A stretch of DNA of 64,000 nucleotides from Escherichia coli (lineage in GTDB: Bacteria; Pseudomonadota; Gammaproteobacteria; Enterobacterales; Enterobacteriaceae), in NCBI RefSeq assembly GCF_001677475.2, contig NZ_CP015229.1; one strand, given 5' to 3'. The notes under the pieces are model-generated. The model did no database searches. It saw only the letters and a list, made by a program, of their open reading frames with translations, and was not told the origin of the DNA. A program made the position numbers and the translations under genes. Positions 396 through 547 of the stretch are shown in pieces (position 1 is the first letter of the stretch; every line of letters begins with the position of its first letter).

Positions 396-547
396 AAAAG
401 CAAAAACTTATCGACGCGGTTTTTTACGTACATCAGGTGAAACTGACCGATAAGCCGCTTTCTTTTGGGTATAGTGTCGTGGACAGTCATTCATCTTTCT
501 GCCCCTCCAAAAGCAAAAACCCGCCGAAGCGGGTTTTTACGTAAATC
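396..547 (-). repeat. Tandem repeats downstream of rnpB, each duplicating the rnpB 3' end plus a GC hairpin and T-run
   Basis: rnpB 3'-end sequence at 548-600 (gtcagtttcacctgat ... gtccacgac) recurs at about 431-500; hairpin aaaaacccgccgaagcgggttttt at 511-545 recurs in degenerate form at about 396-430. Confidence 0.8.
511..545 (-). terminator. Intrinsic terminator of rnpB
   Basis: On the minus strand: cccgcttcggcggg stem-loop followed by tttttgcttttgg, directly 3' of the RNase P RNA. Confidence 0.8.

Follow-up and report, generated by a model that had tools for sequence, protein, structure and literature searches.

Tandem copies of the rnpB 3' end downstream of the RNase P RNA gene in Escherichia coli and their probable maintenance by recombination with the gene

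Partial copies of the end of rnpB, the gene for RNase P RNA (M1 RNA), lie downstream of the gene in Escherichia coli and raise a question that can be tested: whether these pseudo-3' ends are kept for a reason, or only because an essential ribozyme gene regenerates them. The locus was analyzed in a 64,000-nt stretch of E. coli DNA (NZ_CP015229.1), referred to here as the window, with 1-based coordinates given on the plus strand. rnpB (377 nt) was located on the minus strand at 548..924 with its mature 3' end at 548, and positions 396-547 are therefore its 3' flank; the gene matched the full-length model of Rfam RF00010 (319.7 bits, E 5.6e-105) and is also labeled rnpB in the annotation of matching E. 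coli genomes. A promoter-like site (GTGACA-17-TATACT, 932..960, minus strand), assigned by consensus match only (10 of 12 positions), ends 8 nt upstream of the 5' end of the RNA. Beyond rnpB lies garK (957-2183, minus strand), and at the other side of the flank lies the 3' end of yhaC (1-328, plus strand, stop codon 326-328), at a distance from rnpB of 219 bp in the window vs 613 bp in K-12 MG1655. An A+T-rich inverted repeat directly after the yhaC stop codon (325..354, plus strand; -6.4 kcal/mol, z -2.49) is predicted to form a hairpin and is possibly a weak yhaC terminator that bounds the array.

The neighboring genes yhaB-yhaC (3267380-3269602 in K-12) are A+T-rich (GC 0.28-0.40 vs 0.54-0.62 for rnpB and garK) and are missing in some E. 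coli, where only pseudogene fragments were found between tdcR and rnpB; by composition and distribution, the pair resembles horizontally acquired DNA that borders on the array. Within the coding region of yhaC (237-277, plus strand), an 18-nt tandem repeat (2.3 copies, 79% matches, consensus AATATAACACAGATGAAGC) was detected, which is also present in K-12.

Self-comparison of the window revealed a direct repeat with a spacing of 113 nt (394-475 vs 507-588, 83% identity ungapped) and a second block (475-496 vs 576-597) with 100% identity. Gapped alignment of the corresponding 102- and 114-nt stretches yielded 87 identical positions, and the local score of the unit alignment was 121 vs 14.0±2.2 (maximum 26) in 1000 shuffles. 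The 21-mer GGCTTATCGGTCAGTTTCACC, which constitutes the last 21 nt of rnpB before the terminal U, was found in the 64-kb window only at 436-456 and 549-569 (chance expectation 0). An earlier sequence-only reading had proposed a tandem duplication of the rnpB 3' end and terminator region at 396-547; the duplication is confirmed and does cover that span, and its true extent is larger, from 597, inside the gene, to 363. Tandem Repeats Finder did not report the repeat in the window, probably because only about two copies with an indel between them are present, a limit of the tool.

The gene-borne copy, unit 0 (497..597, minus strand, 101 nt), consists of the last 50 nt of rnpB, the terminator T1 and a spacer. 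It overlaps rnpB over 548-597 and starts 50 nt before the mature 3' end of the RNA, with AGAUGAAUGAC. In the direction of transcription it comprises segment A (577-597; AGATGAATGACTGTCCACGAC, in RNA sense AGAUGAAUGACUGUCCACGAC), segment g (570-576; AGAACCC), segment B, which is the P1 3' strand (549-569), U548 as the mature end, a 9-nt linker (539-547), the T1 hairpin (515-538) with its tail (507-514), and the spacer (497-506; AGGGGCAGAA in RNA sense), all on the minus strand. Unit 1 (383..496, minus strand, 114 nt) is the sole full extra unit. Its segments A (476-496) and B (436-456) are each identical to the gene at 21/21 positions, and between them an insert, g' (457-475; ACTATACCCAAAAGAAAGC, in RNA sense ACUAUACCCAAAAGAAAGC), replaces AGAACCC. 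A linker (426-435), a terminator remnant (394-425) and a spacer unlike that of unit 0 (383-393) follow, all again on the minus strand. The array is closed by a 20-nt partial copy of segment A (363..382, minus strand; AGATGCATGAATATCTACGG). This stub is identical to A at 15/19 positions and is weak when taken alone (21 of 1000 shuffles score as well); all E. coli strains examined have it at the end of the array, even those with 0 extra units.

T1 (507..538, minus strand) is built as AAAAACCCGC-UUCG-GCGGGUUUUU followed by GCUUUUGG and shows the G+C-rich stem, UUCG loop and UUUUUGCUUUU tail of an intrinsic terminator. Its predicted fold on the minus strand has -22.4 kcal/mol (z -4.05, 0/200 shuffles as stable), and it also folds on the plus strand (-13.9 kcal/mol, z -2.57), there followed by UUUUUACGU. 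A simple consensus terminator scan did not flag T1 at 507-538 because the U-run is absorbed into an A-U extension of the stem, which is a limit of the tool and not evidence of absence; "rnpB T1" is a named terminator part (PMC3643576). The corresponding site in unit 1 (394..425, minus strand; AAAAAACCGCGTCGATAAGTTTTTGCTTTTGG) retains only the A-tract and U-run (AAAAAACCGCGTCGATAAGTTTTTGCTTTT), the complementary 3' arm of the stem being absent. At this distal site (AAAAAACCGCGUCGAUAAGUUUUUGCUUUU), no hairpin beyond chance was found on either strand (z -0.35 and +0.25, vs -4.05 for T1), and the terminator score was -4.2 vs -12.5 for T1. The statement of the sequence-only reading that a GC hairpin and U-run recur thus holds for the U-run and not for the hairpin, and its further proposal of stacked terminators fails in the window, where T1 (515-538) alone works because the distal hairpin is lost. 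Intact stacked terminators were found in K-12, O157:H7, O104:H4 and other genera. A unit 1 without a terminator resembles the terminal units of most strains, which points to position in the array and does not exclude this copy from the locus family. For annotation pipelines and terminator predictors, the distal copy should be counted neither as a second terminator nor as a second rnpB 3' end.

In many strains, the terminator of the terminal unit is interrupted by a 168-nt segment with two REP-like palindromes. Unit 1 of the window aligns to such a BIME-interrupted terminal unit minus the 168 nt, and all 25 best E. coli matches to 335-560 were two-piece alignments with the extra 168 nt. The absence of this REP/BIME segment at that point would account for the missing 3' arm of the unit 1 hairpin. 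The junction of the missing segment lies at short AAACC(C)G repeats, and by this comparison the hairpin was probably destroyed by a 168-nt deletion between the repeats that took the REP/BIME insert with it.

Several other rearrangements were seen at the same place in the sampled genomes. In O104:H4 C227-11 (L008, 213-1193), an insertion of an IS621 (IS110-family) transposase gene was seen at the REP element that interrupts the terminal unit, and in strain 2015C-3121 (L011, 748-1445), IS1A lies inside the first extra unit at the boundary between insert and B, with the flank beyond IS1A deleted as far as tdcD. REP/BIME-type palindromes often occur directly after the rnpB terminator or in the last unit (e.g. 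L016, L020, L042 and L138-140), and in Kosakonia cowanii (L091, about 540-800) they form a tandem series of their own.

The window repeat is already known from K-12. Tandem Repeats Finder reported a period of 113, 3.5 copies and 96% matches for the K-12 flank, and the window unit, also of period 113, aligns with the K-12 units segment by segment. Repeats of 113 bp in 3.5 copies were reportedly described 3' of the E. coli K-12 M1 RNA gene by Reed and Altman in 1983, and we take the window repeat to be a form of that "113 bp × 3.5" array. In the literature searched, no paper on the repeats was found; the RefSeq annotation of K-12 has no gene within the repeat region.

Unit-by-unit decomposition of eleven E. 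coli strains gave 0 (CP149466 and one strain without yhaBC), 1 (this window, O157:H7 Z1815 and DSM 103246), 2 (BL21-like strains), 3 (K-12), 4 (O104:H4) or 5 (CH4790) extra units. A census of 5,426 E. coli genomes with the 113-nt unit found 1-9 places per genome (median 2), a count that is approximate, since a diverged terminal unit or the gene-borne copy may fail to be counted as a place of its own, and the number of extra units ranged from 0 to about 8. Matches spanning 80% or more of the unit were present in 3,720 of the 5,426 genomes and absent from 1,706 (~31%). The suggestion that copy number varies between strains is borne out by this comparison, and the absence of any extra unit from two sampled E. 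coli strains (L005, L006) indicates that the units are dispensable. Copy number, terminator type, presence of REP/BIME and IS insertions together make the locus a cheap natural lineage marker. In the window itself, the array is of small importance, being a nearly minimal, decayed form of the known K-12 repeat.

To survey other taxa, one genome per species was scanned with a 20-mer of segment A, which returned at least 120 loci. Among the matches listed, 13 loci from 12 species (eleven named Enterobacterales and one unclassified soil MAG) carry 2-5 tandem copies at 96-126 nt downstream of rnpB; further taxa were added through GarK homologues, using the synteny of garK and rnpB. Extra units number 3 or 4 in Salmonella enterica (119 nt each), 2, 3 or 4 in Citrobacter amalonaticus, and 1 each in Klebsiella aerogenes and Phytobacter; none were found in C. 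rodentium, Intestinirhabdus alba or Enterobacter asburiae. Overall, at least one extra unit is present in about 18 of the 39 sampled Enterobacterales species, from at least three families, with arrays in Escherichia, Salmonella, Citrobacter, Klebsiella, Phytobacter, Pluralibacter, Cedecea, Enterobacter-like strains, Erwinia, Pantoea, Pectobacterium and Brenneria. Like E. coli, both Salmonella and C. amalonaticus are polymorphic for the number of units.

For most genera, the extra units follow the gene of the same species in their P1 strand and terminator. The extra units of Salmonella (L133/L134, about 4100-4560) carry the E. coli-type P1 strand GTTTCACC, whereas the gene of that species has GCTTCAC, which indicates that homogenization with the gene is incomplete; over their first 60 nt, the E. 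coli and Salmonella extra units do not differ. In draft assemblies of Citrobacter youngae (L109, L110) and an Enterobacter MAG (L038, L039), contigs end or begin at or near units, and the L109 contig of C. youngae starts inside an extra unit. This suggests that the repeats fragment short-read assemblies, and copy numbers from drafts are thus lower bounds.

A further feature was noted in Cedecea sulfonylureivorans (L098, 4580-7560; also L080 and L015), where a toxin cassette encoding a PAAR-motif protein and a 511-aa PAAR/S-type pyocin/colicin-E3-like "Cytotoxic" toxin lies directly downstream of the rnpB units. The cassette is preceded by a long hairpin (AAAACAATACGTTGGTGTGTCT...GGGATACACCAACGGTTG), the first 22 nt of which are identical in Enterobacter, Cedecea and Erwinia, and diverged forms were seen in Budvicia, E. 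endophytica and C. rodentium.

The extra units differ from the gene in a feature that the sequence-only reading did not describe. Unit 1 has a 12-nt insertion between M1 RNA nt 348 and 349, with a change of CC to AG two positions on. Following the established secondary-structure model of M1 RNA, we take the insertion site to be the conserved ACAGAA motif and the 3' strand of helix P4 (CR-V). Unit 1 keeps the P1 3' strand and the CACCU/GAU context; its ACAGAA/P4 3' strand, which in a functional RNA lies unbroken between those of P2 and P1, is split by the insertion, so that the copy cannot stand in for the real 3' end. A role as 3'-end mimic or alternative processing site, as put forward in the sequence-only reading, is thereby made less likely. 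On this structural model, the extra units are pseudo-copies of the rnpB 3' end.

The insertion (repeat-specific sequence GCUAUACCCAAAAGAAAGC) is found at the same position in the extra units of every genus, with a size of 12-13 nt. The consensus of the insert across genera is (G/A)CUnU...AAAGAA(A/C)GC, the 3' half of which is the AGAAC of the gene itself, and 10 of its 19 columns do not vary among 9 taxa from three families. The gene-type AGAACCC was absent from all extra units compared (28 units and, in addition, those of Salmonella, K. aerogenes, C. amalonaticus and Phytobacter), an absence that could reflect a mechanistic barrier or selection. Over all pairs, mean pairwise identity was 0.74 for the repeat-specific 12 nt vs 0.46 for four-fold degenerate sites of garK, taken as a proxy for neutral change; in six taxa compared with E. 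coli, identity was 1.00, 0.83, 0.75, 0.75, 0.83 and 0.58 for the insert and 0.50, 0.57, 0.48, 0.43, 0.49 and 0.36, respectively, for the four-fold sites, a comparison of small numbers and of taxa that are not independent. The insert is identical at 12/12 positions between E. coli and Salmonella. As far as could be checked, neither the wide distribution of the array in Enterobacterales nor the slow evolution of its insert had been described before.

Exchange between units is suggested by the distribution of terminator types. A variant terminator, which gives a 120-nt unit, is found in the extra units of BL21-like strains and as the terminator of the gene itself in strain 2015C-3121, and two terminator types are mixed within the arrays of Pluralibacter and Enterobacter sp. 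Bisph1. Terminators are intact by score in 21/22 gene units, 20/26 internal extra units and 7/22 terminal units, those of the remaining six internal extra units being at about -7 kcal/mol. Tandem arrays in concerted evolution classically show homogeneous internal repeats, divergent edge repeats and polymorphism in copy number; the homogeneous interior, decayed edges and variable copy number of this array point to concerted evolution by unequal crossing-over, which from these patterns would be the main mechanism of its evolution.

We consider it likely that the locus is a tandem array anchored on the rnpB 3' end that is driven by recombination, refreshed from the gene and decaying at its edge, and that its units are dispensable. 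The array would expand, contract and be homogenized by unequal homologous recombination and gene conversion, with most exchanges falling within the long block of about 80 nt formed by B, terminator and spacer. Unit 0 lies under strong selection and so would keep refreshing the units next to it, and the outermost unit would escape homogenization and decay. The insertion may persist in the extra units for two reasons: a gene that took it up would lose P4, which should be lethal, and crossovers would be much likelier in the ~80-nt B-terminator-spacer block than in the 21-nt A block. The array of the window would then stand near the minimum, with one extra unit of the terminal type, and T1 would be its only working module, ending transcription of rnpB and, probably, that of the convergent yhaC. 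In other strains, extra units that are intact may act as back-up bidirectional terminators, yet would still be dispensable.

An alternative, which we regard as unlikely, is that the array has been selected as a bidirectional stack of terminators, or insulator, that blocks both read-through from rnpB, which is very strongly transcribed, into downstream DNA and convergent antisense transcription into the essential rnpB gene. The strong hairpin and U-run terminators of most internal extra units (20/26), the folding on either strand of T1, whose two sides are flanked by an A-tract and a U-tract, and the occurrence of arrays in many genera whatever the downstream gene are all in keeping with such a role. 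However, a full extra unit is missing from about 31% of E. coli genomes and from about half the species sampled, and the extra terminator of the window is dead. Selection for termination also leaves the retention of A, B and the insert unexplained. Homogenization alone would preserve internal terminators as well.

The conservation of the insert bears on a broader alternative, namely that the array is an ancient Enterobacterales element under selective constraint whose units have a function beyond termination, to which we give rather little credence. A purely neutral array does not predict such conservation unless units are exchanged horizontally; the insert could be held either by constraint on the units or by exchange from lineage to lineage with the conserved rnpB as recombination anchor. 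Persistence in at least three families is long for a dispensable repeat and counts against a neutral reading. Were there such constraint, it might act, for example, through a read-through-derived RNA that bears the P2 and P1 3' strands of M1 RNA and interacts with Hfq or with the biogenesis of RNase P RNA.

The more specific proposal that the extra units are a functional non-coding RNA, e.g. one freed from read-through transcripts and extending to the next terminator, seems to us quite improbable. The P2 and P1 3' strands of such an RNA could pair with the 5' end of M1 RNA, and an A-rich (ARN-like) stretch together with a U-tailed terminator would, by analogy, resemble Hfq-binding small RNAs. 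Slower change of the insert than of garK four-fold sites in 6/6 comparisons, the invariant columns and constant position noted above, and a conserved AAAGAAAG stretch upstream of the terminator all favor it. Against these stand the absence of any Rfam match to the extra units (a search of the window and 7 other loci with Rfam 15 returned only RF00010, over the gene itself), the lack of a conserved promoter, the dispensability of the units in many strains, and the derivation of the 3' half of the insert from the gene. Nor was a conserved structure with covariation found: RNAalifold yielded only the terminator and a weak A:B hairpin over the whole unit, with no informative covariation, and a helix between spacer and insert, enclosing A, was no better than shuffled controls. 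By eye, this helix had seemed to covary in E. coli, C. amalonaticus, K. aerogenes and Enterobacter sp. Ag1; with the upstream arm shuffled, z was mostly -0.6 to +0.7, an effect of U-rich and A-rich composition, and the helix was rejected as a candidate.

An origin of the extra copies as scars of site-specific integration, with the rnpB 3' end as the attachment site, is very improbable. In Cedecea, the ~3-kb PAAR/S-pyocin/colicin-E3-type toxin cassette does lie between two 21-nt copies of B, Enterobacter, Cedecea and Erwinia share a 22-nt sequence after B, and foreign DNA is frequent in the rnpB 3' flank (yhaBC, IS1, IS621 and REP). However, the shared junction is trivial, since it is merely where conservation of the gene ends, and the distal Cedecea copy looks like a diverged full array unit. 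No integrase was found beside any array or in the Cedecea cassette, no viral contig carried segment A or B (0 contigs), no matching attP was found on a mobile element, and no copy of B lies distal to yhaBC in K-12. The tandem period of ~100-126 nt, with two blocks of identity around a heterologous insert, is also unlike the signature of attachment sites.

We give almost no weight to the possibility, reportedly raised with the description of the repeats in 1983, that each unit encodes a small basic peptide from AUGs in AGAUGAAUGAC, which in E. coli have GGAGGGG before them. Two frames run open through the entire 113-nt E. coli unit (ORFs of 28-58 aa at 314-595), and the first AUG has a Shine-Dalgarno-like GGAGG 9 nt upstream. 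The reading frames are nevertheless not conserved across genera: stop codons interrupt frame 1 early in C. amalonaticus, Enterobacter sp. Ag1 and Enterobacter sp. Bisph1, units with inserts of 19 and 20 nt differ in frame, and most substitutions in frame 2 are non-conservative. Other genera do not conserve the GGAGG, and RefSeq has no gene there in K-12.

The array regarded here as recombination-driven and gene-refreshed can be set beside four known systems. The 3' ends of tRNA and tmRNA genes serve as attachment sites and are duplicated at genomic islands, and the rnpB array is similar in that a 3' fragment of an essential stable RNA is repeated beside variable acquired DNA; its copies, however, stand head to tail at ~113 nt with no island between them and consist of blocks split by an insertion. 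Like the tandem terminators after stable-RNA operons (rrnB T1-T2), the locus has a strong Rho-independent terminator with further ones stacked behind it in many strains, but the extra copies at rnpB include the 3' end of the gene too, and the second terminator is non-functional in the window. The window shares with the 113-bp repeats of K-12 the locus, a start ~50 nt inside rnpB, the 113-nt period and a terminator within the unit, and differs from them in having one extra unit of the terminal type plus a stub, with the hairpin lost and without the REP/BIME segment by which this unit is interrupted in K-12 and the closest genomes. With tandem arrays in concerted evolution it shares a homogeneous interior, decayed terminal units and copy-number polymorphism within species, and it differs in that one end of the rnpB array is a selected segment of an essential gene, which would provide a permanent template.
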